Below are positions 44,611-61,503 of a stretch of 64,000 nt of DNA, in pieces. Source of the stretch: a virus. Lineage: Duplodnaviria; Caudoviricetes. The stretch lies in IMG/VR virus record IMGVR_UViG_3300042975_000096. One strand, 5' to 3'. Below the pieces are notes generated by a model. That model was not told the DNA's origin. It made no database searches and saw nothing but the letters and a program-made list of their open reading frames with translations. A program made the translations under genes and the position numbers. Every line of letters begins with the position of its first letter. The stretch's first letter is position 1.

Positions 44611-44619
44611 ATTAACCCC

Positions 44620-45900
44620 TCAATCAAAATGCTTCAAAATAGTATTTATAATGTTTCTCTTTTTAACGTCTTTCCATAAAACAGAATCCATATCAACATT
44701 AAAATCATTTTTATTTGTGCTAAAATCATTTTTTACATTAATTATTTTTTCTAATCTATATTTTCCCCAAATATTATGTGTGGTTATTGAAACATTTTTT
44801 AATGCATTGGAATTTACATTTATTGCAAAAGAATTTCCATAATAATATAAATTTCCAGGATTTAAAACACTGTTGTTTAATTTCGACATTAATTTTTTAC
44901 AATCCGCTTCATTTTCTTCTATAACGACCCAATCTTTATAATTGTTTAGATTTATAGTATCATCTGCTTGTATTTTATCAAAATTTTTAGGAAACAATAT
45001 TTTATTGTCATTGCTCATACTTACTTCTGCAACTTTCTTTAATTGTAATTCTTTTTGTTCATCCCATAATTGGTTGTTTTTTTCATAATCTTCTTTTGTA
45101 ATTATCTTATAATCACCATTTTTTATTTTTTTACTATTCGGTAATTTATTTTTAATACTTTCAGTAATATAATCAAACTTTTGATTATCATCCAACATTG
45201 GCAATCCCAATCTAGCACCACAAATTTTACACCAGTGTTTTTGGTCAGAATAATCTACTCGCTTCCACCAATCAGGTTTTACATCCCAACCACCTGGACC
45301 ATCAAACAACAAGTCTAATGCTCCTGCCATCTCACAAAAAAATGCACCTTTTGGCGTTATCGAAGCTCCACAATTATTTTGAATCCAACACCTATTTTCT
45401 CTTTTTTCAAATTCTTCATCTGATATCCCTAAATCTTTATAATTAACCAATACTGAAAAATGTTTTGTTTTATTTTTATGGTCATTACATCGCAATGATG
45501 AAAACGTATCACAAATCAATTCCATATTGTCATAAAAATTATTTGTTTCAGCAGTTGTATATAATCGCAATTTTCCATGATTATAAGGCATATAATCCAT
45601 AGCATATTTATTTACATCACAAACAGGTTCAGTAAACATTTTATTTGTTGCCGTTCCGAATTTATCATGTAAATATTGAACCATTTTTGCAAAATCAGGA
45701 TGTAACAATGGTTCTCCACCAATTATTCCAATTTGTCCATTCCAACCATCTAGCGAATCAATTGCATTTTTAAAAAACTCAAAATCCATAAAGTATGGGT
45801 TTTGATAATGTCCACAAAATCTCATACAATTTGAACAAGAATTAATACACTTATTCGTAATATCTATTAATATCGTTGGTTTATCAGCTATCTTCTTCAA
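44620..45900 (-). CDS. Radical SAM protein
   Basis: CINSCSNC (CxxxCxxC), GGEPLLHP, further Cys CWIQ..FFCE..CKIC. Confidence 0.9.
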   Translation of the reverse strand: MKKIADKPTILIDITNKCINSCSNCMRFCGHYQNPYFMDFEFFKNAIDSLDGWNGQIGIIGGEPLLHPDFAKMVQYLHDKFGTATNKMFTEPVCDVNKYAMDYMPYNHGKLRLYTTAETNNFYDNMELICDTFSSLRCNDHKNKTKHFSVLVNYKDLGISDEEFEKRENRCWIQNNCGASITPKGAFFCEMAGALDLLFDGPGGWDVKPDWWKRVDYSDQKHWCKICGARLGLPMLDDNQKFDYITESIKNKLPNSKKIKNGDYKIITKEDYEKNNQLWDEQKELQLKKVAEVSMSNDNKILFPKNFDKIQADDTINLNNYKDWVVIEENEADCKKLMSKLNNSVLNPGNLYYYGNSFAINVNSNALKNVSITTHNIWGKYRLEKIINVKNDFSTNKNDFNVDMDSVLWKDVKKRNIINTILKHFD

Positions 45901-46732
45901 GTTCCCACTCCTTTCTATCTTTACAACTTATACCCCAATCAACAATTGTTTTTTTGTTGCAATATTTACAAAAATTAATACTTTTCCTATTATTCATTTT
46001 TATTATTTCATCAATGCTATCTATCTCAAAAATATTAATAAAATCATCATTTTTTTTAACAGCATAATTTTCATTAAAAAAAGAATTGAACTTATCAATA
46101 TTAGCAGGAATAATACAAGAATAAAAATCACCATTCATATTTAATTGACAGCAAGGCATTACATTAAAAAACTCATACATGTTTTCGTCAACATTTTCTT
46201 TTATTTTGTTCAAATCACTATTTCTATTATTACAAATAATATCATTATCATTTGTTTTTCCCAAATTAACCCTATAAAAATGTTTACCTTCATAATAATT
46301 TGTAACCGATAATTCTACATTATAGGTTTTAAGCTCATCATAAAAATCATTTGACTTTTCAATTGTCCCGTTTGTTATCAATTTCACCACAATATCTGGA
46401 AAAATTTCTCTCGTTTTTCTCACATAACTCATTACATCAGGATGCAACAATGGTTCTCCACCCATCAAACTGATACCATAAAACGGTTTGTTTTTTAGTA
46501 TTTGTTTTAACCTTCGCAACAACCTGGTAAAATCTTCTATATTAGCAAACCACTCATCCGCTAATGGAGCAAAATGGTCACATCCCTTACAGTTCAAATT
46601 ACAATGATTTGTAATATGAATATCAACAGTTCCTAATCCATTTTTAACATAATTAAGTTCTTCAATATATTCTTGTATGTTTTTTTTATTGTTTTCTTTT
46701 AGTAATTTTATCAAACCATCAACCCATTTCAC
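45884..46732 (-). CDS. Radical SAM protein (paralog of 48559..49323)
   Basis: HITNHCNLNCKGCDHF, MGGEPLLHP, TNG, C-terminal FCKYC. Confidence 0.92.
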   Translation of the reverse strand: MKWVDGLIKLLKENNKKNIQEYIEELNYVKNGLGTVDIHITNHCNLNCKGCDHFAPLADEWFANIEDFTRLLRRLKQILKNKPFYGISLMGGEPLLHPDVMSYVRKTREIFPDIVVKLITNGTIEKSNDFYDELKTYNVELSVTNYYEGKHFYRVNLGKTNDNDIICNNRNSDLNKIKENVDENMYEFFNVMPCCQLNMNGDFYSCIIPANIDKFNSFFNENYAVKKNDDFINIFEIDSIDEIIKMNNRKSINFCKYCNKKTIVDWGISCKDRKEWELEEDS

Positions 46733-47580
46733 CTTAATAACTTCAACACCAAATCATCTTTGTGAAAACATAATTTATTAATCACATCTTGTTTTGTGAA
46801 TTTTATTTCTTGCGTGACATTATCATCAAAATCAAACAACCTCAAATATTCTGTCAAGCCATCATCTTGTGATTTATTTTCCGAAGAATAATAAACCTTT
46901 TTATTCATATAAACAAACTCAAAAATTAACTTGCCAATATTTTCAGAATATATTGAATCAACAACGTTTCTCCATCGTTGATATTTTAATGTATTTTTCA
47001 ACATACTATTAAACTTTATTTCATCTGTATCTTCCGCATTTCTCTCTAGCTCATCAAACACACCATTTTTTTTATCCAACGAATCCAAATAATTTAATCT
47101 TTCTAATGAAAACTTATGATAATACACATAGTAATTGTTAGTATAAAATTTTTCATTACATGGATTTCCTAAAATTTTTATATTTGGTATATTTTGCACA
47201 TACTTGTTTTTTTTATTGTTATTCATTATGTAATCATAAAACATTAACCCAGAATCAAGCATAATTAAATTATCATACCTAAAATCAAACGTAGATAGAT
47301 ACTTCATGATGGCAAATGAAACAATTAAATTCTCTGATTTATGATTATTTATCCATTCATTTAATTTTCCAATATTACAAAATTCATAATTCATTCCTGC
47401 TATTGGTATTGATTTATTTATCGTATTAATATATTTCATATTGTTTTTCATATCTGCACAATCAACAAATATATAACATTTTATATTGCAACCATATTTT
47501 TTTAAATTAAAATACATATCAAATAACGAAGTCGTTATCCCGTTCATTTGTGGATAATAAAAGACTATATCAACATTCAT
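46729..47580 (-). CDS. Unknown protein, paralog of 50917..51789 (possibly divergent glycosyltransferase-like)
   Basis: Shared motifs NG..TS..D...NL, KFS.ER, ENIGK..FEF, DGLTE(F/Y)L. Confidence 0.6.
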   Translation of the reverse strand: MNVDIVFYYPQMNGITTSLFDMYFNLKKYGCNIKCYIFVDCADMKNNMKYINTINKSIPIAGMNYEFCNIGKLNEWINNHKSENLIVSFAIMKYLSTFDFRYDNLIMLDSGLMFYDYIMNNNKKNKYVQNIPNIKILGNPCNEKFYTNNYYVYYHKFSLERLNYLDSLDKKNGVFDELERNAEDTDEIKFNSMLKNTLKYQRWRNVVDSIYSENIGKLIFEFVYMNKKVYYSSENKSQDDGLTEYLRLFDFDDNVTQEIKFTKQDVINKLCFHKDDLVLKLLR

Positions 47581-47587
47581 TGTTTAA

Positions 47588-48571
47588 TTACCTCGATTTC
47601 AATATATTCTTCAGCGACTCTATACTTTTTGTAGCGAATGCAACATTACCATGTATTTCGCAATAAGGCTCTTTTTTTAATTGCTTAAATAAATCATTTA
47701 CTGATTCTCTATAAAAATCATTTATAATTATAATGTAATCATAACTATCATGAAATTTTTTCAACAATTCCATCTTTGAATAACGTTGTTTACATATATC
47801 AAAATCAATAAAATCTATAATATCAAAATAGCCATTGCTAATTTCCTCACTGTTCTCATAAACAACTAAGCAATGTCCTTTATATAATTGTTTGAATTCA
47901 TTATATAATTTTTTCATATATATTAATGAGTTAACTTGATTCATTACTCTTTTTAAATTTTTTCTTACATAGAAATAAGCGATTGGCTCATTACAAAAAG
48001 AATAATGTTTGCAATTTGACACATACCTAAATATTATTTCATCGTCAGCCATACGCAAATAAGAACAATCCCACTCACCATATTTTTCAAAACAGTTTCT
48101 ACTATGCGCAAAAGAGCACGTATCAACCTGATTAGAAACAAATATATTCGTTTTTGAACAATCAAGCCCTTTTAACTCTTTATTTCCTTCATCATCAACT
48201 ATAAAATATTTTGTAGTAACAACTTCTGTATTATCATTGATAACCTTTAATAAATTTTCACAGCATTTTTTATCTGTCTCATCATCATCATCAGGATATA
48301 AAATCCAATCCCCAGTAGAATGAATAACCCCATAATTTCTTGCATAACAATGACCTTTGTTTTCTTTCAATCGAAACATTTTTATATTATCCATACCTAG
48401 CGCATCAATAAATTGCTTCTTTTTTTTATATTCTTCAATCAATGAACAATCATCAACAATAATTAATTCCCAATTAGCATATGTTTGATTGACAACAGCC
48501 AAAACTGCTTTAGGAAAATAACAACTTCTATTATATGTTGGCATAATGAATGAGAATTTTATTCCATCCAT
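47588..48571 (-). CDS. Glycosyltransferase family 2
   Basis: FSFIMPTYNR, QTYANWELIIVDDCS, ARNYG, YPDDDD. Confidence 0.92.
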   Translation of the reverse strand: MDGIKFSFIMPTYNRSCYFPKAVLAVVNQTYANWELIIVDDCSLIEEYKKKKQFIDALGMDNIKMFRLKENKGHCYARNYGVIHSTGDWILYPDDDDETDKKCCENLLKVINDNTEVVTTKYFIVDDEGNKELKGLDCSKTNIFVSNQVDTCSFAHSRNCFEKYGEWDCSYLRMADDEIIFRYVSNCKHYSFCNEPIAYFYVRKNLKRVMNQVNSLIYMKKLYNEFKQLYKGHCLVVYENSEEISNGYFDIIDFIDFDICKQRYSKMELLKKFHDSYDYIIIINDFYRESVNDLFKQLKKEPYCEIHGNVAFATKSIESLKNILKSR

Positions 48572-49323
48572 TCTTCTTTACTCCTTTTTGATTGTTCCCA
48601 TTCTATGTCTTCAATAGGTTTTCTACAATACTTACAAAAATCATTTTTATTACGATAAAACTTATCAATAACCTCATCTGTCACATTATCATCATAAATA
48701 TCTAGAATATCTTCTTTTTTAACCTGATATGTTTCATTAAAATACTTATTAAAAATATCAATATACGCCTGTATTGGACATAAATACAATTTGCCATCTT
48801 TCAATTGCATTGATTTCCAATGAATCATACAACAATCAAAATCTGTTTGTTTCGCTTCATGTGTTAAAATATGTTTTCTTAATATTTTTGTTTTTTCATA
48901 TTGATTAAAATTTTTTGTTCTAACCCCAACGCTATTCAATAGTGCAAATAACTTCTCATAATTAACATTAATTGGATACCTTGTCATTTCTACCAAAACA
49001 TCATACTCTATTAAACTGTTTATCATTTCTCCCATTCTCTGTTTTAACAAACTACCATTACTTAATACACTCATCTTTGTATTTGGCATAATTTCATGAA
49101 TTGCTTTAAAAAATTCACAAACATTCGGATGAAGTAATGGTTCACCACCAAACAATCTAATATTATCTACAATTATTTTCGTGCCTAATTGTTTCAAATC
49201 TTTTTTAAATTCCTCAACATCAGCAAACCACGGTTCAGATAATGGCGAAAAATGCGCACATCCTTTACAGTTCACATTACAATGATTTGTAATGTGATAT
49301 TCAATCATTCTTACATGTTTCAT
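48559..49323 (-). CDS. Radical SAM protein
   Basis: HITNHCNVNCKGCAHF, FGGEPLLHP, SNG, C-terminal FCKYC. Confidence 0.92.
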   Translation of the reverse strand: MKHVRMIEYHITNHCNVNCKGCAHFSPLSEPWFADVEEFKKDLKQLGTKIIVDNIRLFGGEPLLHPNVCEFFKAIHEIMPNTKMSVLSNGSLLKQRMGEMINSLIEYDVLVEMTRYPINVNYEKLFALLNSVGVRTKNFNQYEKTKILRKHILTHEAKQTDFDCCMIHWKSMQLKDGKLYLCPIQAYIDIFNKYFNETYQVKKEDILDIYDDNVTDEVIDKFYRNKNDFCKYCRKPIEDIEWEQSKRSKEEWME

Positions 49324-50912
49324 TTTATAATCATTCCTTTATCAAACACTAACCCATCCAGCTTTTCATTAAACATCCTAATCATATCTTTTGCATAATT
49401 GAAGATTGGCATACCACTATCATTAAATGAAGTATTTATTAATATTGGATTCCCCGTCTTTTTACCAAAATCAATTAATAAATCATGCAACCATTTATCC
49501 TCTTTAGCATCTACTGTTTGAATTCTAACTGTTCCGTCTAAATGTATTGCCCCATCAATAATATTTTCTTTTTTACAATACCCTAAAACATTCATATATG
49601 GGGCATCAACATTAATATCAAAATATTCTCCCATATACTCGCGAGGAATTAATATGCCATATGGTCTATACCATTCTCTATTTTTTATTTCGTTTAATTT
49701 ATCATGCATTTCTTTATGTAACGGTGAAGCCAATATACTTCTATGTCCTAACGCTCTCGGGCCCATTTCTATATTTCCCCTACATATACCAACAATACCA
49801 TCTTTTTCTAAAATTTCAATCAATTTATCATTATTAATATCAATCAAGTTATCCTTTATGTGCCTATAAAAATATGCTTTATCATAAATTTCAGAAGTAC
49901 AATAAAATTCATTAATATCTAAACTATTTAACTCATTTGGTTTGTTTTTTAATAAATAATTAAATATCGCTCCAACTGATTGACCTGTATCAGAAGCTAT
50001 TGGATTCCAATATATTTTTTTAAACCACATTGATTTAGCCAAATAATAATTCAACATGCAATTCAATGCGCATCCACCTGAAAAAACCAACGTATCACTA
50101 TATTCTTTATATTTATCAAAAACATTATTTAATACATCATCTATCCATATTTTTTGAAAAGTATATGCCAAATCATATTTATTATGCTTTAATTTCAATT
50201 GGTCAATATAATTATTAATATACTTTTCGATATTTTCTTTTTCAGCCCAATTATTCCAATTTATACTTTTTATTTTTTTCATAAAGTCGCGTATATCTCT
50301 AATTTCTATAAAGTTACTAGATATACCGGCATAAGCCATAAATTTACCTTCCATGCCATCATAATATTTAGTTTCTAAAAAATTACTTGATAATATCTCA
50401 TAAAACAATCCATAACTAAATCGTTGTTCTTGAAATATTTTTTTTAATTTATTGTTTTTATATAAAAACACCGCATGGTTTCCATCACCTTTACCATCTA
50501 TTGATACACATAATGCATTATCTAATTTATTTATTATTGCAGTTGGCAATACATGATTTTCTTGATGATGCATTTTTTTCATTTCACAATTCTCTAACAT
50601 TTTAACAAACTCAAATGATTCTTGTTTCAAATATCCATCTTCGAATTGAGTATAACACCACACAACTACGTCAAATCTATCCACATTAAACAAATCTTTA
50701 ATCATTTTTTGTGCTTTATAAATGTTTTTATGCATACAATCTTTATAAATTGAATCAACATAATTAGCATAATCAATCTTCTCTTGTGAATGAAACGAAA
50801 AATGTTTTTTCTTTAACAATTTATCCATTTCAATGTATCTTAGCTCTTTTGTTTCTGTATCATAATAGCATACATTATAGTCTTGATAGCATTGTATTCC
50901 TAAAATTTTCAT
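49320..50912 (-). CDS. O-carbamoyltransferase, CmcH/NodU/TobZ family
   Basis: HHQENH, DGKGD, EGKFMAYA, SGGCALN, EMGPRALGHRSILA, KNREWYRP, H.DGTVRIQTV, INTSFN. Confidence 0.93.
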   Translation of the reverse strand: MKILGIQCYQDYNVCYYDTETKELRYIEMDKLLKKKHFSFHSQEKIDYANYVDSIYKDCMHKNIYKAQKMIKDLFNVDRFDVVVWCYTQFEDGYLKQESFEFVKMLENCEMKKMHHQENHVLPTAIINKLDNALCVSIDGKGDGNHAVFLYKNNKLKKIFQEQRFSYGLFYEILSSNFLETKYYDGMEGKFMAYAGISSNFIEIRDIRDFMKKIKSINWNNWAEKENIEKYINNYIDQLKLKHNKYDLAYTFQKIWIDDVLNNVFDKYKEYSDTLVFSGGCALNCMLNYYLAKSMWFKKIYWNPIASDTGQSVGAIFNYLLKNKPNELNSLDINEFYCTSEIYDKAYFYRHIKDNLIDINNDKLIEILEKDGIVGICRGNIEMGPRALGHRSILASPLHKEMHDKLNEIKNREWYRPYGILIPREYMGEYFDINVDAPYMNVLGYCKKENIIDGAIHLDGTVRIQTVDAKEDKWLHDLLIDFGKKTGNPILINTSFNDSGMPIFNYAKDMIRMFNEKLDGLVFDKGMIIK

Positions 50913-50916
50913 ATAG

Positions 50917-51789
50917 TTACCCTTTCAATAATTTTAATATTTCATCATTATGTTTCATAAACAAAACCTCTTGTAATTTTGATTTTGATAATAAATTCAA
51001 ATCAAAATCAAAATTATCATCAATTCCAAATTGAAAAAGAAATTCTGTTAATCCATCATTGATTTTTTTATTCTTACAAGAATAACTGGCTTCTTTTTCT
51101 AATAGCAAAAATTCGAACATCATTTTTCCTATATTCTCATAATAATCAGCACCAAATTCTGTATATGGATTATCTTTTGATTTTTTGCTATATCTAAAAT
51201 AATCATATCTTTTATACGAAAACGGTTTAATATCTAATTTGTTCTTTTTTCTTTTAAAATATTCTTCAGATGTTAATATGCCATTTTCATTTGTGCTTAT
51301 TTGTTTCAATCTATTAATCCGCTCTTCTGAAAACTTCATATACCAAATAAAACTATTCTTTACAAATTGTGCATTAAACTCATTACAAATAGTAATAATG
51401 TCATTATCATTTATATACGAAATCATATTATTGAATTCATTTTGAGAAATCTCTTTCTTATATATAAATGCAGGATAAAATAAAAACACTTTATTAAAAT
51501 CAATCTCTATCGTTTTTGTTTGAACTAAATCAATTACCTCACTACTAATCACACAAGCATTTCCATGTAAATCGTAATGCATTTTACCATACTTCAATGG
51601 CAAATAAACAATATTTGATTCATTACCAAAATAGCGTTTGAATCTTTTAACTACTAATTTATCATCAAAGAATACAATTAATCTTATTTCCCAATTTGTA
51701 TATTTTCTTAAATTATAAAACAAATCTTCAAATGAAGTATATGCCCCATTTAATTCATATAAATAATAAATCAAATCTATTTTCATCAC
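50917..51789 (-). CDS. Unknown protein, paralog of 46729..47580
   Basis: Same shared motif set as 46729..47580. Confidence 0.6.
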   Translation of the reverse strand: MMKIDLIYYLYELNGAYTSFEDLFYNLRKYTNWEIRLIVFFDDKLVVKRFKRYFGNESNIVYLPLKYGKMHYDLHGNACVISSEVIDLVQTKTIEIDFNKVFLFYPAFIYKKEISQNEFNNMISYINDNDIITICNEFNAQFVKNSFIWYMKFSEERINRLKQISTNENGILTSEEYFKRKKNKLDIKPFSYKRYDYFRYSKKSKDNPYTEFGADYYENIGKMMFEFLLLEKEASYSCKNKKINDGLTEFLFQFGIDDNFDFDLNLLSKSKLQEVLFMKHNDEILKLLKG

Positions 51790-52925
51790 TAAACACTCTC
51801 AATACATTTATATATTTTCATCATTATATTCTCTATACTGTACTTTTTTGATTCCTTAATACAATTCTTTCTTATATTAACAATATCCTTACAGAAACTA
51901 TTGCGTATAGAAGCCGGTAAATCGTCTGTGACAAGCCATCCATTATATCCATCTATAACTATATCATTCATTGATTTACACTCCTTGTATCCAATCACAG
52001 GCGTTCCAAATGACATTGCTTCTAATGCTACAGTTGGCAAACCTTCTATTATTGATGGTATCACTAAAACATGTGCATTACGATAGAACGGTTCTACATT
52101 TTTTTGATATCCATGAAAATGAATATTGTCAAATTTGAAGTATTCAGATATATCCAAAAAACCATCATTGGCATAATTATACCCTACAACATCACACTCA
52201 TAATACGTATCTTTAATATAGTCTAATAATAACTGCGTTCGCTTTATATCCCTGTTTATTCTTCCAACATATAGAATGTTACTTCGTTTCTTATTGATTT
52301 CTATGTTGTCAGGTATTTCTATACAATTATAAAAAACGTATGATTTATCTTTATATTTTTCACTAACATATTGAGGTAATAAAAATCCTAGTCTATCACA
52401 AGATTCCAACATCATATCATAAAGTAACTCTTTATCTTTCAATGCTTTTTGAAAAAATAAATATTCTAGCCCTTGCATTTTACTAAATGTGTTTTTAATA
52501 TATTTTGGCTCATTATGAAAAAACATTATTATTGGAACATTTGTCATTTTAGATATAATTGACCAAAATATTACTTGCTGACCCCCACCTGCATTGCAAA
52601 ATATACAACGTGGTTTTATCTGAAAAACGGTTCGTGCAACTTTATTCATATATCCTCTAGAAAAATAAGTAATCATATCACTATGAACAATTATATTTTT
52701 CAAATTCAAAAAATTTCCTGGTTGCTGAAACAGATGAACTTCGTATTTTTTAGATAACGATTTGCAAATTTTTATGGTATATTTCTCCGCTCCCCATAAA
52801 TATTGTTCACCTTCATTTTTCATAATATTGCAAGTAATAATAATTTTATTTTCATCTCTATTTTGTACAAACCATTTTTTGTTTAATGTAAATTGAGCAT
52901 ATAATAAATCATTTTTTATATTCAC
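51789..52925 (-). CDS. Glycosyltransferase family 4 (GT-B)
   Basis: GAEK, ILYVGRI...K, PSIIEGLPTVALEAMSFGTPVI (E-x7-E). Confidence 0.92.
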   Translation of the reverse strand: MNIKNDLLYAQFTLNKKWFVQNRDENKIIITCNIMKNEGEQYLWGAEKYTIKICKSLSKKYEVHLFQQPGNFLNLKNIIVHSDMITYFSRGYMNKVARTVFQIKPRCIFCNAGGGQQVIFWSIISKMTNVPIIMFFHNEPKYIKNTFSKMQGLEYLFFQKALKDKELLYDMMLESCDRLGFLLPQYVSEKYKDKSYVFYNCIEIPDNIEINKKRSNILYVGRINRDIKRTQLLLDYIKDTYYECDVVGYNYANDGFLDISEYFKFDNIHFHGYQKNVEPFYRNAHVLVIPSIIEGLPTVALEAMSFGTPVIGYKECKSMNDIVIDGYNGWLVTDDLPASIRNSFCKDIVNIRKNCIKESKKYSIENIMMKIYKCIESV

Positions 52926-53736
52926 GACATGCCATCCTTAAAATATTTTTTTCCAACTTCTTATCCACCAATTTGTTTGCATACATTTCCCATATTTTAC
53001 CAAACAAATCAGCTTTCACCCATGGTTTTGGATTACTAGCATAATGAATTATCTTTATTTTTTCTGATTTTATTCTTTCTCCATAAATCCGAATATATTC
53101 ATTAAACTTCAAATGACCATAATTGTTTGCCAAAAAATTATATCCATAATCTATATATTTTATTTGACCATTAAATGCATCATTCATAATATCCTGTTCC
53201 CATAAATGATAATCTTTTGCTTCTGATTCTAACCTTATATAATAACTATACATTGTATCTTTTTTATTAATAACAGTATTCCTTATCTTTTTTAGATTCA
53301 ATAAAATATTTCCTGCATTAAAATAATTTAACCCGTTTATCTTATCTCTTACTCCTGCTACAAAACAATCCTCAATATCAATTTCAAAAATTTCTGAAAT
53401 ATCTTCTATTACAACTGTATCTGCATCAATATGAAAAACCTTGTCACAATCTAGTAATTCATGCAACAACAATTTATAATATACTACACCTGCATTATCT
53501 TCTCTGATAAAAATATTTTTATCAATATAAATTGGATGGATGCAAAAATCAATAGAGCTTAATTGACCTATTTCTCCTATATCATTAAACTCTATACATA
53601 ACAAATAAACATCGTAATTTACATCACGATGCTTATTTGTTTTCAATGAATACATTGAAACATATGTTTGATATAGATATGATTTATTTGTAATGTAACA
53701 AAGATTAAAACGTCTTTGCAAACTCATTATAAACAC
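52909..53736 (-). CDS. Glycosyltransferase family 8
   Basis: HIDADTVV, YFNAG, EQDIMN, IIHYASNPKPW. Confidence 0.9.
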   Translation of the reverse strand: MFIMSLQRRFNLCYITNKSYLYQTYVSMYSLKTNKHRDVNYDVYLLCIEFNDIGEIGQLSSIDFCIHPIYIDKNIFIREDNAGVVYYKLLLHELLDCDKVFHIDADTVVIEDISEIFEIDIEDCFVAGVRDKINGLNYFNAGNILLNLKKIRNTVINKKDTMYSYYIRLESEAKDYHLWEQDIMNDAFNGQIKYIDYGYNFLANNYGHLKFNEYIRIYGERIKSEKIKIIHYASNPKPWVKADLFGKIWEMYANKLVDKKLEKNILRMACREYKK

Positions 53737-54340
53737 TTCTCAATTCTTCTTCATCTACTGCACTATCAATTCTATCCTTGAAATCCTTAAATGCTTTATA
53801 TGCTTCATCAACGGCATTAAATTCGTCCAATGAATCTAGATATTCAGATAGCTTTTCCAAAACTTCCGTATCACCTGAATTGATTACTTTTAAATATTCT
53901 TCTTCGCGATTTTCATCTGTAATAAAATATCCTTTTGATTCCAAATAATGATTTAATTTGAAAAAATTAAATAATGCAAAATTTGAAATGGATAGTTTAT
54001 CACCAATAGAATCACCCATAATGCGAATGAAATGTGTTTTTTCTCGTTCTAGTTTATCTTGACTTGATAGCTTAACCGTTTCGACTTCTTTTATATCTTG
54101 CTCTTGTAAAATCGTTGGTTTTAAATTAACGTCATAATAAATAACACATTCAGGCTCACTTCTATGTAAATCTAATTTATTAAAAATTCTCAAATACGCT
54201 TGTGGAGAAACCTCAACATAATCCTCTTTATTCAATAAAATTGGTTCATTCTCTAATTTCAAAAATGGATTAACTAAAAAAGCTCTATCTTCTTTAACTA
54301 AAATACCACAATAGCATTTCATTTCTACATTATCACTCAT
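53705..54340 (-). CDS. Hypothetical protein, possibly tail-fibre assembly chaperone-like
   Basis: C-terminus KDRIDSAVDEEELRSV resembles the I..A...EEL end of phage fibre-chaperone families; lies two genes after the Cys-rich protein. Confidence 0.45.
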   Translation of the reverse strand: MSDNVEMKCYCGILVKEDRAFLVNPFLKLENEPILLNKEDYVEVSPQAYLRIFNKLDLHRSEPECVIYYDVNLKPTILQEQDIKEVETVKLSSQDKLEREKTHFIRIMGDSIGDKLSISNFALFNFFKLNHYLESKGYFITDENREEEYLKVINSGDTEVLEKLSEYLDSLDEFNAVDEAYKAFKDFKDRIDSAVDEEELRSVYNEFAKTF

Positions 54341-54581
54341 CTGTTTTCGTTCCTTCCTGCACTTGTTTCATAATATCATCAATATCTTTATTATTTTTAT
54401 CATTTTCTTCTGGAAATTCTAGTTCTATGTTTTGTTTTCTAGCCAAACTAACCAGCAACATATTAACAACATCCATAACCGTAGCATATGCCAATTTATC
54501 AATCGGATAAATATTTTCTCTAGCACTAATTACAAAATTTTCAATAGCTTTATCTACTGTTAATATTTTCTTATCGGACAT
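54333..54581 (-). CDS. Small hypothetical protein
   Basis: ORF with AAGGAAAG RBS; overlaps next gene. Confidence 0.6.
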   Translation of the reverse strand: MSDKKILTVDKAIENFVISARENIYPIDKLAYATVMDVVNMLLVSLARKQNIELEFPEENDKNNKDIDDIMKQVQEGTKTDE

Positions 54582-54598
54582 TTAAATCTTTCCTTTCA

Positions 54599-55366
54599 TT
54601 AATAAATGTATGCATAACACCATCCATATCTTCTAACTACATGGCAAGAACAAACTTCATCACCAAAACACGTACAATAATTACAATTACATACACATGT
54701 ATTGGATAATAAATTAGCAGCTCCAACTAAGAATCTATTGAAAAACTCAGCAAATGTTTTATCCCCAACTTCAACAGTCGCAACAAACAACGCAACCCAT
54801 TGGTCTAAATTATCCGTTTGCAATGCCATATTTCCCCACGGTTTATATTTAACAGTTCCATTTGGCGAACCTTCTTCAAACCCTGTTACTGAATCATCCG
54901 TAGAATTACCATGCGAAACACCTAGTACACAATATGTTGGATTACCTCCGTATGAAGCACTCTCCATGTGACTATAATCTGTTGCATTATTTATACGATT
55001 ATTATACAAATCCCATCTATAATCAGCTGGATGATTGTTTTTATCATATTGATACATATGCAATGTTGTTTTAAATGCACGTTTTATATCGTCAGCCGTT
55101 ACCATTACATCTGGGTCTCCACTTGTACCAATTTCAATATCATCAACGCCACCACGTAATGACCATTCTCTACGCAAAATACTCCATAGCTTTTGCATTC
55201 TTTCAAATGTTAATTTCGCTCCTTCTGCCACAACTTCCATTTGTGGATTTCTTGGGGCATCACTACCCGGATGAGAACCATAAGGTTTACAAATCGGAAA
55301 TCCTGCTGGTCTTTCAATTGTATTCCAACCGCCCTCAACATGCATTACATAAGGCCCTTGTGCCAT
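54599..55366 (-). CDS. Protein with Cys-rich C-terminus (CVCNCNYCTC..CSC..C); candidate radical SAM substrate / virion fibre protein
   Basis: 8 Cys in the last ~32 aa; two V..G.K-helix repeats; GGAG RBS; near two SPASM enzymes. Confidence 0.6.
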   Translation of the reverse strand: MAQGPYVMHVEGGWNTIERPAGFPICKPYGSHPGSDAPRNPQMEVVAEGAKLTFERMQKLWSILRREWSLRGGVDDIEIGTSGDPDVMVTADDIKRAFKTTLHMYQYDKNNHPADYRWDLYNNRINNATDYSHMESASYGGNPTYCVLGVSHGNSTDDSVTGFEEGSPNGTVKYKPWGNMALQTDNLDQWVALFVATVEVGDKTFAEFFNRFLVGAANLLSNTCVCNCNYCTCFGDEVCSCHVVRRYGWCYAYIY

Positions 55367-55413
55367 AATTAATCAACTCCATATATTTATTATATAAATT
55401 TTCAATTATTATT

Positions 55414-55427
55414 CTAATATATAGATA
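55414..55427 (-). promoter_or_regulatory. Candidate late promoter, one-mismatch variant (upstream of Cys-rich protein and glyco operon)
   Basis: TATCTATATATTAG. Confidence 0.35.
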
Positions 55428-55436
55428 CGTTTTCTA

Positions 55437-56639
55437 TCATTTTTTATCATGATTTTCCGTAATACGTTGATTAGCAATATTACAATAATGCAATTCTTTT
55501 TCAATTCCTATAAATTTTCTATCTAAAGTATCACATGCAACACCTGTAGTTCCACTTCCTGAAAACATATCCAAAACAATCTGACCTTCTCTTGTAATTA
55601 ATTTAACCAAATATTCCATTAGCTTTATTGGTTTAACTGTAATATGGTCATTATATTTACCTTTTTCAGATTTAGAAGCCTTTGCACAATAAAAAAATCT
55701 TGATGCTCCACCCTCATCACCATATGTTATTTGGATATCTCCTGCTTTTCCCAATCCACCATGTTCAAAAAACACGCCCTCTTTTGTTCGTTTACAGTTT
55801 GTTCCGCTTTTCAAATGACCACTTTGTTCATCTAATAATTCGGCAGACACTTCATCTAAAATAACATTTGACGGAAATCTCCCTTTTGGATTCGCACTAG
55901 CCATAACATTTTTCGTATTATCAAATCCACAACTCTTATCATTCATAACAACTGCATTTTTTCTACCATGTCTAGAAGTTGTTTTTAATGGTTCATTGTG
56001 CGAAATTCTACAATCATCAATGTTAATAGCACCCGTTCCATATTTCAAAACATTTTCACATACTGTTTTTTCTTCTATTGGTTTTCTCGCCACACAAATC
56101 AATTCTTGTGCAGGTTTTAATGCAGTATTCCATCCGTTCCACTTTTTAGCTTCTTCTGTTTCGAATTCTACATCTCTAACATATTCTTGACCATTATAAT
56201 CTTTTGGTCTATCATTATCTGCATGGATTTTATTATATCCCATAGAAGCCGTAGCCTTTTTTCCTTTAAGTTTCTTAAATGCTTGCGTATTGGCTGAACC
56301 ATTTTTTATTTTTGATTCAATTTGCTTTCCAACATCAGCCCCATGTGGCATACCACTACCATAAATCCATGACATCGTATCACGAATTTCAAATCCTGCA
56401 TCTTCAATAGCACAAACCATACGATGATATGTTCTTGTGGAATTAAATACAAGAATGTGACCACCCGGTTTCAATACACGGAATACCTGCTCCCACATTT
56501 CTACACTATTTACAATACCTGTTTTATCCCACCCTTTTGACATAAAACCAATATTATAAGGTGGGTCTGAAATAACAGCATCAACGCTATTACTTTTCAT
56601 TTTTTTCATTTCTTCAATGCAATCGCCATTTATAATCAT
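55437..56639 (-). CDS. Orphan N4C/N6A DNA methyltransferase (beta class, large insert)
   Basis: DPPY; GWNTALKPA; HITVKP; VLDMFSGSGTTG. Confidence 0.92.
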   Translation of the reverse strand: MIINGDCIEEMKKMKSNSVDAVISDPPYNIGFMSKGWDKTGIVNSVEMWEQVFRVLKPGGHILVFNSTRTYHRMVCAIEDAGFEIRDTMSWIYGSGMPHGADVGKQIESKIKNGSANTQAFKKLKGKKATASMGYNKIHADNDRPKDYNGQEYVRDVEFETEEAKKWNGWNTALKPAQELICVARKPIEEKTVCENVLKYGTGAINIDDCRISHNEPLKTTSRHGRKNAVVMNDKSCGFDNTKNVMASANPKGRFPSNVILDEVSAELLDEQSGHLKSGTNCKRTKEGVFFEHGGLGKAGDIQITYGDEGGASRFFYCAKASKSEKGKYNDHITVKPIKLMEYLVKLITREGQIVLDMFSGSGTTGVACDTLDRKFIGIEKELHYCNIANQRITENHDKK

Positions 56640-56644
56640 TTATC

Positions 56645-57715
56645 TTAATTCCTTCTCATCTTTTGATAGGCTTTAATATAATTGGAAATCTTTTTATACA
56701 TAGCGCACACACTATCATTATTCGATTTATTCCAATCTTCAACTTTACCATTGCTATTGATGGAATTACATCTAAAACAGAAAATTGAATCGCATTCCTG
56801 ACATTTACTGTTTTTTGCAAACATATTGTTTCTTACTAAATAATTATGTTCAATCTTATACAAACAATTATCGTCAAAAATATTTGTATAAAACATTTTA
56901 TCATCTGCATACAAACAACCATGGCAATACGTTACTCTACCATCTAAATCAACAATAAACGAATCGTCACCACCATGGCAATCAGCCCTATCTGCCGTAT
57001 CAAACCACACAAATCCAGTATATCCATGATTATCTTTTTTGTTGTCTATAAAATACTGAATCAACTTAATAAATTGATTGTTCATTTTATCAAAATCAAT
57101 TAGTCCATCACTTAATGTATCTGGTGTACATGCAAAAACAACTTTATGTTTTAACGTCTGATTGAATTTGTCATAATTGACATATTGCTGATAAATATTA
57201 TTCTCTAAATCATTTACAGTACATGTAGATTTAATTCCAAAATTAAATCCGTTATCATCAAAAAAATGAATTGCTTCTTTAACAACTTTATCCGTTTCCA
57301 TAACTGTTTTTCCTAACTGAACCCTTTGATTATTTTCTTCATTATGGAAATCATAAGAAACCTGAACCTGTAGACGTTTCCCAATCAAATTCTTTAGCTC
57401 TAGCAATTCTTTTTTGTATTTATTTACCAATGAACCATTCGTATACATAAAAAATTCAACATTATCATACATACTAAATTCTTTTACAATACGATAAATA
57501 TCTTTGAAATAAATGAGTGGTTCACCACCCCAAAACTCAACATGAACTAAATCATTGTTTTCTTGAAGAACATGGAGCAATTCAATTACCCTGTCAAACG
57601 TCTTTGGATATAATGACTCTTTGCTCTCTACCGCGCCATTCTTAACCTCAAAACAATATTTGCATCTAAAATTACACGCCTTACCCATATTGATGGATAT
57701 TCCAACTTTGTTCAA
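56645..57715 (-). CDS. Radical SAM protein with SPASM-like C-terminal domain
   Basis: CNFRCKYC, FWGGEPL, YTNG; DCHGG..TYCHGC..CQECDSIFCFRC..C. Confidence 0.9.
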   Translation of the reverse strand: MNKVGISINMGKACNFRCKYCFEVKNGAVESKESLYPKTFDRVIELLHVLQENNDLVHVEFWGGEPLIYFKDIYRIVKEFSMYDNVEFFMYTNGSLVNKYKKELLELKNLIGKRLQVQVSYDFHNEENNQRVQLGKTVMETDKVVKEAIHFFDDNGFNFGIKSTCTVNDLENNIYQQYVNYDKFNQTLKHKVVFACTPDTLSDGLIDFDKMNNQFIKLIQYFIDNKKDNHGYTGFVWFDTADRADCHGGDDSFIVDLDGRVTYCHGCLYADDKMFYTNIFDDNCLYKIEHNYLVRNNMFAKNSKCQECDSIFCFRCNSINSNGKVEDWNKSNNDSVCAMYKKISNYIKAYQKMRRN

Positions 57716-58764
57716 TTATTCCACCATCCTTTTTTTGTTATATCTATATTATATTCTTTGTTCATAAATAAATATAAACTAGATACCATATTATAAATTT
57801 CCTTTAATAATAAACAATATCCATCAACAATATCTCCGTTTTTATACTGCACATATAAACATCCTTGATTACAGAACTTATTTATTTTACATTGATTACA
57901 TTTATCATTTATCGTTATGTTATGTTCCGCTACAAATTTAATGTTATCATGATAATATTTATTCTCATTACTATCACACAATCTATAATAATCGTTTGTA
58001 TAAAATCTAGAACAAGGATATATAATTCCACTCGGAGTTAAACTAAATCCATTTTTACCTGCAAAACAAACAAAATTTCGTTTTCCTGAAACAATATTAT
58101 CTAATACTCTTTCTACAAACCCTATTCTTATCCATCTATGATAATTTTTATAATGAAAAATTAAGAACTCTTTCAATTTTAAAAGCTCTTTTTTTATCAC
58201 TATTAAATTGTTTTCATTCCAAACATCATCTTTTACAAAAGATATATCCATATATAAATCATCACAATCATTTTCCATCGCTAATTTATAAAAGTAATTT
58301 ACAACCTTCATAATGGATGGATTGTGATTGCTTATCATTGCTTTAGCTTGTACAGGAACAATATTGTTTTTTACCAATTGCTCGAAATTTGAATGATTAT
58401 TATCACATTCTCCATCACAACTAATACCTATATTAATATGATGAAGTTTTAAAATGTTTTTTATTTCTTCATTCAATAATAATGCATTCGTTTGCAAAAA
58501 ACTGAATTTTATATTATAATTGTTCTTCATCCACTCATCAAATAAAATAATTTTATTTATTTCTAATAGTGGCTCTCCACCAAAATAAGTAACATTATAC
58601 TCACCACTAAATTGTACATCAGTCATAACAGATAGATTTTCCACGCAATTCATTTGCTTTTTTAATGATTCAAATGTTAATACTTCTTCATCTTGGTTGA
58701 TATAACAATACTTACATTTCAAATTGCACTTATTTGTCATATGCAACTGTAATACATGTTCCAC
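57712..58764 (-). CDS. Radical SAM/SPASM protein
   Basis: CNLKCKYC, FGGEPL, QTN; CFAG..GIIYPC..CNQC-x5-C-x3-C..C. Confidence 0.93.
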   Translation of the reverse strand: MEHVLQLHMTNKCNLKCKYCYINQDEEVLTFESLKKQMNCVENLSVMTDVQFSGEYNVTYFGGEPLLEINKIILFDEWMKNNYNIKFSFLQTNALLLNEEIKNILKLHHINIGISCDGECDNNHSNFEQLVKNNIVPVQAKAMISNHNPSIMKVVNYFYKLAMENDCDDLYMDISFVKDDVWNENNLIVIKKELLKLKEFLIFHYKNYHRWIRIGFVERVLDNIVSGKRNFVCFAGKNGFSLTPSGIIYPCSRFYTNDYYRLCDSNENKYYHDNIKFVAEHNITINDKCNQCKINKFCNQGCLYVQYKNGDIVDGYCLLLKEIYNMVSSLYLFMNKEYNIDITKKGWWNN

Positions 58765-58795: not shown

Positions 58796-58823
58796 AAAAG
58801 CTCTACTGTATGGTAGAGCTTTT
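58796..58823 (-). terminator. Intrinsic terminator
   Basis: AAAAGCTCTAC/GTAGAGCTTTT stem. Confidence 0.7.
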
Positions 58824-58827
58824 GTTT

Positions 58828-61503
58828 TTAAATTGTTTTATTAATGCTTATATCTAATAAATATGTGGAACGATTTTTAAGATTTAATGGATAATTATAA
58901 TTATATTCTAACATAAATCCATGGGCATCCTTATCTATCTCTCCATTAATACTACCTATTTCTTTCATTTTTACTTTTCTTTTATCAATTCCACCTATAT
59001 ATAATTGTGGATAGTCAGAAGTCGAAAGAATATTCATTGTCCTTGCTACACTATCATATTTATAAGAGTTGGATAACAATGATTCGAAATTTAATAGTTG
59101 TTCATCTGTATATTCATATAATGCATCAAATATCATATTGGTTTTGAATTTGTATTGCGAAATCCTCTTTAAATTCGCCAAATCTAATTTACTTACAATT
59201 AATTCGTCATTATAATAATTCAATATATACGCAGTCTTATAGTCTATGCTTACTATTTTTGCATGACATAAATCGCTATATCTAAATTCTTTATTCGTTG
59301 TTCCTACACCATATACATCTTCTGTTGACAGTTTATATAACAATATCGTTTTGTTATATATATTACAAATTCTATAAATACCATAATCATCTTTGTTTTT
59401 GCTAGACATTGATTTTTCAAACTTTAAATAATACCTGTCATTCATAAGTTCCATAATATTCATCGGATTTTGATTCTTTATTGTATCTTTATATGTATAT
59501 GTGAGATTATCACTCTTGATATCATATTCATATCGCTGAACTTCAATGTTAAAATTGTTATCATACATACATACACTTGCCGTTGTCAATATTGTCATTG
59601 AAGTATTAAAATGAACTTTTGTATTACTTTCTTCATTTTTGAATTCTACATTTAGTGGTATTTTAATAGCATAATGGAATTCTTGCATTGTAAATTTTCT
59701 AACAAAATTATCTTCATTCATTGAAGCAAAATCATGTTCTAACACTTCATATTCTGATTCGGCTGTTATATAATATTTTACATTATTACTCGTAACATAT
59801 CCAATATCATCAATATATTTTAACATATTCGTTCTGATTTCATTAAAAATATTAGCAATCATATCGCTACAATCAATTACCGTTAATGTACTATCTTCTA
59901 TACTTATTTTTTCTAATGCATTTAAATTATCATAATTTATAAATCTTATTCGTAAATTATTATTCGTGTCAAATCCCATACACATATTATGCTTAAGATA
60001 TTCTAATGTCGGATTGTATAACGTCGTTTTGTAATCCATTGTATCATAATTTATTCCATCATATTTTACAACATGAATTCCATATTCATCAAAATTTATA
60101 AAATAAAAGCTTTTATCATTATACATGATGTATTGTGCTTTATCAAAATATTCTTGTGATTTTTCTATCAAAATATGTTTATTCTTCATATCTAAATCAT
60201 ATAAGCTAAATGGATTTAATGCGTCTTCTTTATTATAAACCATAAAACCTGTCGTTGCATTACTAGATATTGTTTTATCTTCATAAACAGCATCTAAATA
60301 TTTTGTATTACCTTTATCTGAATAACGGATAATATTATTTGCTGTCTTGTTCGTTTTTAATGTTAATTCATAATCATCATGCGCTTGTATATTAAACGTA
60401 CAAAAATAATCATCTCCACAAATCAATCTTAATGAAAATCTTCCTTCATCTCTCTTTGTGGTATTCTCATCTACTATATATTTAATAATACCCTCTCCAT
60501 TTATATCAAATATATTTGGGGATTTGTTCGTTTGGTTTTTATTATATGTCTTTAAATAATCAATGCTATAATTTTCTGTTTGAAAATGATATTTTTTATC
60601 TTCATGAATTAAATCAATGGTTAAATATTTATTCCCATCTCTATTATCAATTACTAATTCAAAAATATCTTTATCAAACATACTATTTTTGTTATTTATT
60701 CTACCTACAATTCCACCATATATGTTATACGTTGATGAATCTGTGTTACTATATGCAATGGTGTTTAATGAAAGTGTATTGGGTTTTATCATTGTACTAA
60801 TTATCTTTTCACTTTTCAACCCATTGCTAGTTACTATCTTTACTTTATATAATATTACTCTTGACTCTGCCATTGTCGTGTCAAACAATAAATCCCTGTA
60901 TCTGTATTGATGATTATGTACTTCCATCTCTCCTAATAAACTCCATTCTGTTGGAGCTTCATATCCATGACGTATTAATGAATTACTTCCATACTCTACG
61001 TTTTTATTGTATGATTTTGGGGATATATGAGAAAGTGGACAGAGATGGTAATATATCAAGATAGAGTCAATGTTGTATTGTGTCTCTAATCTTAAAATAA
61101 TATCTAGATAGCTATAGTTCTCGTGTAGTCCATATGTAGACAAGCTAACAATTTTTATATCGTTCTCTATATAATTATTCAGAATTTTCAAATAAAAATC
61201 ATTCTTATATATCTTGCCCGTATTAAGAATCACTTCAACTGCATAATTGAAATTACCCTTCTTTACAATATTTTTATCTTTAATTGTATAAAACCCGTTA
61301 CTTTCTTGATATACATCTACATCTTTATAAACTTCACCATTTTTATAAACAATAATATTATTTATTGGATATTCATTGTTTTGTATTTGCACATAAAACT
61401 CAAAATTATATACATATTCTCGTTTATAAAAATTATCTTTATCACAATACACCTCATGTGTGTATCCTTCAGGCAAAGTAAATATTATATCATGATTGTT
61501 CAA
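58828..61503 (-). CDS. Large Tyr/Asn-rich beta-structured hypothetical protein (N-terminal Ig/FN3-like repeats possible)
   Basis: 891-aa ORF with AAGGATGG RBS; NIIVYKNG..FNYAVEVI and ILYKVKIVTSNG.KS resemble FN3 strands. Confidence 0.6.
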   Translation of the reverse strand: MNNHDIIFTLPEGYTHEVYCDKDNFYKREYVYNFEFYVQIQNNEYPINNIIVYKNGEVYKDVDVYQESNGFYTIKDKNIVKKGNFNYAVEVILNTGKIYKNDFYLKILNNYIENDIKIVSLSTYGLHENYSYLDIILRLETQYNIDSILIYYHLCPLSHISPKSYNKNVEYGSNSLIRHGYEAPTEWSLLGEMEVHNHQYRYRDLLFDTTMAESRVILYKVKIVTSNGLKSEKIISTMIKPNTLSLNTIAYSNTDSSTYNIYGGIVGRINNKNSMFDKDIFELVIDNRDGNKYLTIDLIHEDKKYHFQTENYSIDYLKTYNKNQTNKSPNIFDINGEGIIKYIVDENTTKRDEGRFSLRLICGDDYFCTFNIQAHDDYELTLKTNKTANNIIRYSDKGNTKYLDAVYEDKTISSNATTGFMVYNKEDALNPFSLYDLDMKNKHILIEKSQEYFDKAQYIMYNDKSFYFINFDEYGIHVVKYDGINYDTMDYKTTLYNPTLEYLKHNMCMGFDTNNNLRIRFINYDNLNALEKISIEDSTLTVIDCSDMIANIFNEIRTNMLKYIDDIGYVTSNNVKYYITAESEYEVLEHDFASMNEDNFVRKFTMQEFHYAIKIPLNVEFKNEESNTKVHFNTSMTILTTASVCMYDNNFNIEVQRYEYDIKSDNLTYTYKDTIKNQNPMNIMELMNDRYYLKFEKSMSSKNKDDYGIYRICNIYNKTILLYKLSTEDVYGVGTTNKEFRYSDLCHAKIVSIDYKTAYILNYYNDELIVSKLDLANLKRISQYKFKTNMIFDALYEYTDEQLLNFESLLSNSYKYDSVARTMNILSTSDYPQLYIGGIDKRKVKMKEIGSINGEIDKDAHGFMLEYNYNYPLNLKNRSTYLLDISINKTI

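Follow-up and report, generated by a model that had tools for sequence, protein, structure and literature searches.

Gene content of the locus

The DNA analysed here, a 64,000-nucleotide stretch of IMG/VR virus record IMGVR_UViG_3300042975_000096 that we call the window, encodes two radical S-adenosylmethionine (SAM) enzymes, rSAM1 and rSAM2, close to a 255-residue protein with a cysteine-rich C-terminus, the Cys-tail protein. The relation between the enzymes and this protein is the subject of our analysis. The whole stretch is from a low-GC myophage with a tail sheath and several proteins of about 2000 amino acids (aa). It comes from a jumbo phage and not from a T4-like one; at the DNA level, it has no match among 50,697 phage records.

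All genes of the module, by which we mean the enzyme pair, the Cys-tail gene and a 211-aa open reading frame (ORF), lie on the minus strand. In the direction of transcription, the gene of an 891-aa protein is followed by a hairpin, rSAM1, rSAM2, a methylase gene, the Cys-tail gene, an 82-aa ORF, the 211-aa ORF and finally an operon of glycan and radical SAM genes (Table 1). The initial annotation had described two overlapping radical SAM genes with SPASM-type Cys arrays, and both points are borne out: the two motif sets are complete and the overlap is confirmed. Likewise, the 82-aa and 211-aa ORFs that it placed after the Cys-tail gene are present, on the same strand and at the coordinates given in the table.

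Table 1. Features of the module and its surroundings in the window.
Feature	Coordinates	Strand	Basis and remarks
rSAM1, radical SAM/SPASM enzyme, 350 aa	57712..58764	-	PF04055, TIGR04085
rSAM2, second radical SAM/SPASM-type enzyme, 356 aa	56645..57715	-	PF04055, Cys motifs; 4-nt overlap with rSAM1
N6/N4 DNA methyltransferase	55437..56639	-	PF01555, E 2.5e-37
Cys-tail protein, 255 aa, proposed substrate	54599..55366	-	alignment with phage heptad proteins
Cys-rich tail, residues 223-255 of the Cys-tail protein	54602..54700	-	alignments
82-aa ORF, helical, acidic-tailed	54333..54581	-	alignment within the clade of the window
211-aa ORF	53705..54340	-	phrog_25260, E 6.6e-13; 8-nt overlap with the 82-aa ORF
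Terminator-like hairpin, 12-bp stem then T-run	58796..58823	-	sits after the 891-aa gene
Glycan and radical SAM operon, downstream	42802..53736	-	Pfam and PHROG matches
891-aa protein	58828..61503	-	conserved upstream of the cassette in every clade relative (898-910 aa)

Since the hairpin follows the 891-aa gene, rSAM1 probably opens a new transcription unit. Between 58796 and 53000 there is no other hairpin with a 12-bp stem: the scan gave only two weak matches with 6-bp stems, both inside coding sequence, one of them within rSAM2 (minus strand, 57530-57515). A variant of a candidate late-promoter motif, which the initial annotation had assigned to the Cys-rich gene, finds no backing in a sigma-70 scan, as sites are not enriched (66, versus 75 in shuffled sequence). 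Relatives share a short upstream similarity (TTGAAAA, GGAGTTGAT) at variable spacing.

Two radical SAM/SPASM enzymes

Both enzymes pass the 29.5-bit cutoff of the radical SAM family PF04055 (rSAM1 with 40.3 bits, E 4.6e-10; rSAM2 with 48.6 bits, E 1.4e-12) and carry its CX3CX2C motif, at residues 13-20 and 14-21, respectively. Each also has a SPASM-type array of seven cysteines, made of CX9-15GX4C, a CX2CX4-5CX2-3C block and a last Cys. In rSAM1 the SPASM pattern is exact (CX9-15GX4C...CX2CX5CX3C...C) and the protein passes the SPASM model TIGR04085 with 36.3 bits (cutoff 27). The block of rSAM2 follows a variant pattern, CX2CX4CX2C, which is invariant; TIGR04085 is not among the 25 best family matches listed for this enzyme. 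All motif cysteines of rSAM1 and rSAM2 are unchanged in five orthologues that are 49-92% identical. Between themselves, the two enzymes are 29% identical, over the N-terminal 108 residues only, and this low identity marks them as old paralogues rather than products of a recent duplication. They are maintained together over large distances, which implies that they are not redundant.

The best family for both is that of the PapB-type ranthipeptide maturases, NF047865, where rSAM1 reaches 113.7 and rSAM2 64.7 bits, both below the membership cutoff of 340. Next, also below their cutoffs, come QhpD, SCIFF/CteB and CbpB, joined for rSAM2 by TIGR04463, which is matched by the N-terminal half only and with 44.6 bits against a membership cutoff of 525. 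Further sub-threshold matches include the cyclophane-type families YhhB, FxsB, GrrM and XyeB and, over its full length, the anaerobic sulfatase maturase family (64.6 bits). The closest solved structure for both is CteB (PDB 5WGG), with which rSAM1 aligns from CteB residue 98 and rSAM2 over residues 100-420. As the alignments begin at residue 98-100, the N-terminal peptide-recognition domain, known as the recognition element (RRE) of peptides that are made by ribosomes and modified after translation (RiPPs), is missing in both enzymes.

The Cys-tail protein and a family of phage heptad proteins

The Cys-rich tail of the 255-aa protein reads as first annotated, with five more residues at its end (..GWCYAYIY). 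Eight cysteines fall within the last 32 residues, arranged as CVCNCNY, CTCFGDE and (V)CSCHVV ahead of the final ..GWCYAYIY, that is, one perfect heptad and two degenerate ones. The tail is near-invariant across homologues whose bodies share only 28-54% identity, so it is no chance feature.

A word-based search returned five near relatives of the protein, and an exhaustive profile search only 12 among 1.84 billion representatives. Family members are 193-525 aa long and their bodies diverge to about 28-30% identity. What they conserve is an N-terminal FPIC[KR]P[YF]G, the mid-protein motifs E..LRG and P[WY]GN, and the tail CVCNCNYC[ST]CFG.E..C.C..V...GWCY.Y. The window protein has no match in Pfam, PHROG or NCBIfam, and profile searches of PDB sequences gave no structural relative. 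Near its N-terminus, S-D-A-P-R fits the (C/S)x(A/P)xR pattern of anaerobic sulfatase maturase substrates; the long homologues that L003, L004 and L006 encode have not kept it, and we rejected this role.

The tail is a shortened and degenerate version of the CxC[N/D]CNY heptad array that certain small phage proteins carry. The alignment partner that reveals this is a heptad protein of a 68-kb IMG/VR contig (L011): hhalign gives the window family a probability of 89.7% against it, over helix and tail, and the window tail aligns with its perfect arrays. Features of the heptad family that the window protein possesses are the preceding helix (..N.L....C.C.CNYC), the heptad and all three partner genes. 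By these comparisons, the Cys-tail protein is a divergent, short-tailed member of an unnamed heptad family that includes phrog_26958; the PHROG scan gave it no match to phrog_26958 itself.

A search of IMG/VR with a DNA pattern for two tandem heptads returned 47 loci and 41 distinct heptad proteins, mostly of 170-350 aa. Common to them are a mid-protein E..RRG motif, a helix ..IN.L...N.AG ahead of the heptads, and heptads whose Tyr and Asn are as invariant as the Cys. Many lead directly into an S74 domain, recognised by the motifs SDxRLK…GV[ML]AQELLGTKYE…YSKLPV and not Pfam-scored. In Pfam scans, S74 (PF13884) follows the heptads of the L011 protein with 37.7 bits and those of metagenomic protein P0015 weakly (E 0.011), and is absent from the window protein. 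In L011 an interruption of about 27 nt (L011:10340-10380) puts the two halves of the domain in different frames, which may reflect a sequencing error, frameshifting or a genuine split. S74 domains, which are self-cleaving intramolecular chaperones with SDxRLK as their cleavage motif, are a hallmark of trimeric tail fibres and spikes. The heptad genes of L011 and of L034, a T4-like phage piece, are located among tail-fibre and baseplate genes.

Tandem paralogous heptad genes, three or four in a row, occur in L060 and L068, an arrangement often seen for receptor-binding tips. Their bodies differ while the heptad/S74 end stays the same, which suggests interchangeable tips. Elsewhere (L012-L018, L020, L021, L025, L026 and L031), other phage SPASM genes adjoin full-size proteins with different Cys repeats. 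Among these, L014 and L017 (about 510-560 aa) have C-x3-C/Q arrays ahead of Ig-like domains, L018 has CTCTCT runs after HxH fibre repeats, and L031 has CNCNCDCNCD.

Co-occurrence of enzymes and heptad proteins

In L003, L004/L005 and L006 (contigs of 38 to 318 kb), which represent three related lineages of jumbo phages, the Cys-tail gene comes immediately after that of rSAM2. Alone, this adjacency is weak evidence, the phages being close relatives.

A more distant cassette was found with an rSAM1 alignment in L011, where it lies behind a tail-fibre gene. Its enzymes are one similar to rSAM1 (30% identity), a SPASM enzyme similar to rSAM2 (23%, E 1e-21) and the product of a third radical SAM gene. 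Encoded with them are a protein of 183 aa, whose six C-x-C-N-C-N-Y heptads are all perfect, and a homologue of the 211-aa protein (E 3e-14). Overall, members of this cassette are 23-36% identical to those of the window. Scanning species genomes with the tail alignment, we also found L034, part of an Anaeromicropila metagenome-assembled genome (MAG), in which an 832-aa heptad protein is encoded among baseplate and head genes. Genes similar to rSAM1 and rSAM2 lie on a second phage contig of the same MAG, L041; binning is no proof that the two contigs belong to one phage. In addition to the cassette-type radical SAM genes, L041 carries genes similar to QueE and QueD (L041:14747-16131) and, about 11 kb upstream of these, one similar to QueC (L041:2605-3288), all named by eye from their translations. 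The phage radical SAM genes of these genomes are thus not all part of the fibre module.

The initial annotation had reasoned that homologues commonly lacking neighbouring radical SAM genes would speak against a link. In our survey the genes keep company: a cassette-type radical SAM gene is present in at least 32 of the 47 heptad loci, with rSAM1-like genes in at least 24, rSAM2-like genes in at least 22 and genes similar to the 211-aa ORF in at least 28. These counts are lower bounds owing to the uneven flanks of the IMG/VR loci, and most loci that lack a radical SAM gene are short or cut at the heptads. Where at least 4 kb is available on both sides, six of seven loci hold such a gene, at a median distance of about 1 kb.

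Module genes in Campylobacter Firehammervirus phages

The 832-aa protein of L034 matches phrog_26958. Used as a tblastn query against the 50,697 phage records, it finds only 15, all of them Campylobacter Firehammervirus; the window 255-aa protein finds none. Exactly the same 15 records are matched by rSAM2 and by the 211-aa protein, and rSAM1 matches them together with two bacterial-type scraps. We do not count the latter as orthologues: they encode bacterial-type 477-aa maturases on unverified faecal scraps.

In these phages, CP21_105 and gene 3-9 of IBB_35, 534 aa each, carry six to seven heptads in mid-protein; for IBB_35 gene 3-9, we confirmed the heptads from its sequence. CP21_105 (L042:8950-10554) has six or more spaced CxC(N/D)xN motifs after the heptads and is annotated as a ‘putative N-acetylneuraminate pyruvate lyase’, a name to which its sequence gives no support. 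The rSAM2-like gene of CP21 (CP21_110/111) is 2.2 kb away, and CP21_151 (rSAM1-like) and CP21_143 (similar to the 211-aa protein, E 5.5e-14) are found 30 kb from the heptad gene, beside baseplate genes. Gene 3-9 of IBB_35 is among the 38 proteins detected by mass spectrometry (MS) in purified virions, with 2.6% coverage, compared with 2.5% for the portal protein (PMC3322345, Table S2). The 5-12 radical SAM genes of Campylobacter group II phages were reported as unexplained (Timms 2010, PMC2853527; Carvalho 2012, PMC3322345).

Taken together, synteny, the narrow range that the genes share among cultured phages and their closeness to each other at most heptad loci support a functional tie between the Cys-tail protein and the radical SAM/SPASM pair. 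The initial annotation had further pictured the Cys-tail protein as a full-size fibre-type protein, not a short precursor, with the modification at its tip. The S74 domains of relatives and the virion homologue of IBB_35 favour a full-size fibre component. As to the tip position, the heptads stand in mid-protein in the 534-aa and 832-aa relatives.

The conserved N-terminal motif and C-terminal core do resemble a leader/core layout and the window protein is without S74 domain, as would suit the precursor of a released product (a RiPP-like toxin, a cofactor or a host-acting factor) cut from the C-terminus. We regard such a product as highly unlikely. The ORF list and Pfam show no protease or transporter gene in the module, relatives carry the fibre chaperone domain and are located among tail genes, and a homologue is present in virions.

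A proposed modification of the tail

On balance, we lean slightly towards a reading in which both SPASM enzymes modify the tail of a fibre-type virion protein, most likely by thioether cross-linking, a chemistry predicted here from sequence. That the two enzymes act on the Cys-tail protein is probable; that their product is a thioether is a more tentative proposition. Thioethers come first among the possible products because the nearest families and the best PDB match are thioether-forming, because the heptad places Cys beside Asn, Asp, Tyr or Thr acceptors, and because of the precedent of CrpC and CrpA of Methanococcus voltae. Somewhat short of probable is a wider proposition, that unrelated tailed-phage lineages (jumbo, many T4-like and Firehammervirus) staple their own fibre-type virion protein with radical SAM/SPASM enzymes.

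In the mechanism that we propose, the SPASM pair would act on the tail before assembly, as long as the protein remains in the host cytoplasm with its anaerobic or reducing conditions. Each enzyme would use its SAM cluster and two auxiliary clusters, without an RRE, to abstract a hydrogen from heptad acceptors (Asn, Asp, Tyr or Thr), after which the Cys sulfur would be joined to carbon. Ranthionine-type bridges formed in this way would irreversibly fix the tail or tie together the three chains of a fibre; their purpose may be mechanical or chemical stabilisation of the adsorption structure. The 211-aa coiled-coil protein would be an accessory outside the particle and may have a role in presentation or assembly.

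Several observations weigh against this proposal. Both enzymes score far under every curated family cutoff, so the type of reaction is unreadable from homology. The synteny within the clade is partly shared ancestry, with neighbour proteins that by eye are very similar over their first 40 or so residues, and L056, a well-flanked heptad locus, has no radical SAM gene within 4.7-6.4 kb. The four module genes of CP21 are scattered over 36 kb. Virion evidence from IBB_35 amounts to the 2.6% coverage given above, for a homologue whose only ties to the window protein are the tail and the shared partner genes. An AlphaFold2 (AF2) model from an 8-row alignment shows the body as low-confidence helices (predicted local distance difference test, pLDDT, of 47 overall), with the tail below 50 and not modelled. 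Finally, in the 193-aa metagenomic relative P0013 the first five tail cysteines are retained and H-K-H replaces the second C-x-C; scans of viral contigs found none that encodes P0013 or P0015.

This last substitution points to metal ligation for at least those positions, since it is a ligand-like swap, atypical of thioether donors. It introduces the main rival explanation, in which the Cys tail is a metal-binding or disulfide element of a trimeric fibre that needs no enzyme, the radical SAM enzymes serving a glycan or other small-molecule pathway. Such an element would be comparable to the His-x-His sites that hold iron in the needle of the T4 long tail fibre. Alternating cysteines would line one face of a β-strand, L018-type proteins mix HxH fibre repeats with Cys runs, a large operon of sugar and radical SAM genes adjoins the module, and CrpA is itself suspected of metal binding (PMC13692751). 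We nonetheless find this explanation unlikely: across very different genomes the SPASM pair tracks the heptad protein and not sugar genes, the nearest relatives of the enzymes act on peptides and proteins, and those radical SAM genes of the window that go with sugar genes belong to a different, non-SPASM type. The thioether and metal readings could also both hold, for different cysteines.

Enzymatic modification of the tail might also follow another chemistry, such as cyclophane-type C-C links from Tyr, oxidation of Cys or Ser as in anaerobic sulfatase maturases, epimerisation, or priming of Cys, Asn or Tyr for glycosylation. The sub-threshold matches to cyclophane and sulfatase maturase families are compatible with this, as are the invariance of heptad Tyr and Asn and the GT8, GT4 and GT2-like genes later in the operon. 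Against it stand the thioether-forming top families and best PDB match, and the fact that, in the only case of this kind resolved by experiment, a SPASM enzyme acting on a Cys-repeat protein gave ranthionine (PMC13692751). We therefore judge these chemistries improbable and retain thioether cross-linking as the preferred reading.

Neighbouring genes

The 211-aa protein is, by its recurrence with the other three genes, a conserved fourth member of the module. The initial annotation had labelled its ORF chaperone-like. Its AF2 model is confident (pLDDT 84) and shows a small β domain with long helical hairpins, but the label is not sustained: a Foldseek comparison with the PDB gave nothing below E 0.29 and the ESM Atlas no match, so that no recognisable chaperone or other known fold emerges. 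The homologue in IBB_35, gene 2-36, is missing from the list of virion proteins (PMC3322345), which indicates that the 211-aa protein is probably outside the virion.

The methyltransferase that the initial annotation described as interposed is indeed present, as a PF01555 member, but it is a lineage-specific insertion outside the module: only the window and L001, its closest relative, have it between rSAM2 and the Cys-tail gene, and it is missing at that spot in L003, L004/L005 and L006. A second N6/N4 DNA methylase gene lies elsewhere in the window, at 40994-41926.

Conservation of the 82-aa ORF is confined to the clade of the window, and the ORF has no match in Pfam, PHROG or NCBIfam. We considered it as a conserved helper or PqqD-like RRE and discarded the idea, as Pfam gave it no match and profile comparisons with the small ORFs of L011 and L041 showed no similarity. 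The 891-aa protein was rejected as part of the module as well: it has no match in Pfam, PHROG or NCBIfam and no similarity to an 860-aa protein of L011, and a terminator separates it from rSAM1.

The downstream operon encodes GT8, GT4, a carbamoyltransferase, a GT2-like protein and three more radical SAM proteins of non-SPASM type. No strong terminator separates it from the module and its order is kept in L003, L004 and L006; its products may possibly act on the Cys-tail protein. In the 318-kb relative L003, paralogous small kinase-like ORFs with weak WaaY/RIO matches lie between rSAM1 and rSAM2 (L003:7229-7669) and after GT4 (L003:13068-13559); they are missing from the window.

Implications

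If the proposal is true, radical SAM chemistry of the ‘natural-product’ type would be part of virus particle building and would join proteolysis, glycosylation and isopeptide chainmail as a new kind of virion maturation. For the first time, a virus structural protein would be seen to receive enzymatic cross-links of thioether (RiPP) type, and the proteins known to bear thioether bridges made by enzymes, which are very few when peptides are set aside, would gain a new member. A function could be assigned to the radical SAM genes that papers on Campylobacter group II phages have listed as puzzling ‘metabolic’ genes from 2010 onwards, and compact RRE-less enzymes for folded or folding proteins would become available. 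The cultured Campylobacter phages CP220, CP21 and IBB_35 make the proposal directly testable, the heptad protein having already been detected in particles of IBB_35.

Comparison with known systems

A literature search, Campylobacter phage papers included, turned up no publication connecting radical SAM enzymes of phages with a virion protein that has Cys repeats. The nearest phage counterparts are the Firehammervirus members CP220, CPt10, CP21 and IBB_35, which share orthologues of rSAM1, rSAM2 and the 211-aa protein and have a 534-aa heptad protein. They differ from the window in being T4-like, in the dispersal of their genes and in the position and number of heptads, six or seven in mid-protein. 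With S74 fibres of the endosialidase type (PF13884), the link is through relatives that end in S74 right after the heptads, implying a trimeric fibre fold. Unlike these, the window protein has no S74 domain and its tail ends in the aromatic ..GWCYAYIY.

Among maturases, the best-scoring families and structure are PapB/PapA (freyrasin), CteB/CteA (SCIFF, 5WGG) and QhpD/QhpC, whose substrates are rich in Cys and offer Asp, Asn, Thr or Glu as acceptors; one of these substrates, QhpC, is a protein subunit and not a peptide. Compared with ranthipeptide and sactipeptide maturases, the window enzymes score a third or less of the family cutoffs. The classical marks of a RiPP system, namely a short precursor with leader and core, an RRE and a protease or exporter, are absent from the window module, and the candidate substrates are structural proteins of 255-832 aa.

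The closest parallel is CrpC/CrpA, where a SPASM enzyme is likewise encoded beside a full-size protein with a C-terminal Cys-rich repeat and the product is the modified protein itself. CrpC, a member of TIGR04463, puts ranthionine cross-links on the 28.8-kDa CrpA, as shown by MS (Dieter et al. 2026, PMC13692751); the paper contains no mention of phages. CrpC has an N-terminal RRE, which rSAM1 and rSAM2 lack, and the CrpA repeat spans 17 residues with C-X-X-Q/D, whereas that of the window family is the seven-residue CxC[N/D]CNY. CrpC/CrpA is an archaeal, cellular system of unknown function; that of the window is viral, has two enzymes and, as we propose, a substrate of virion type.

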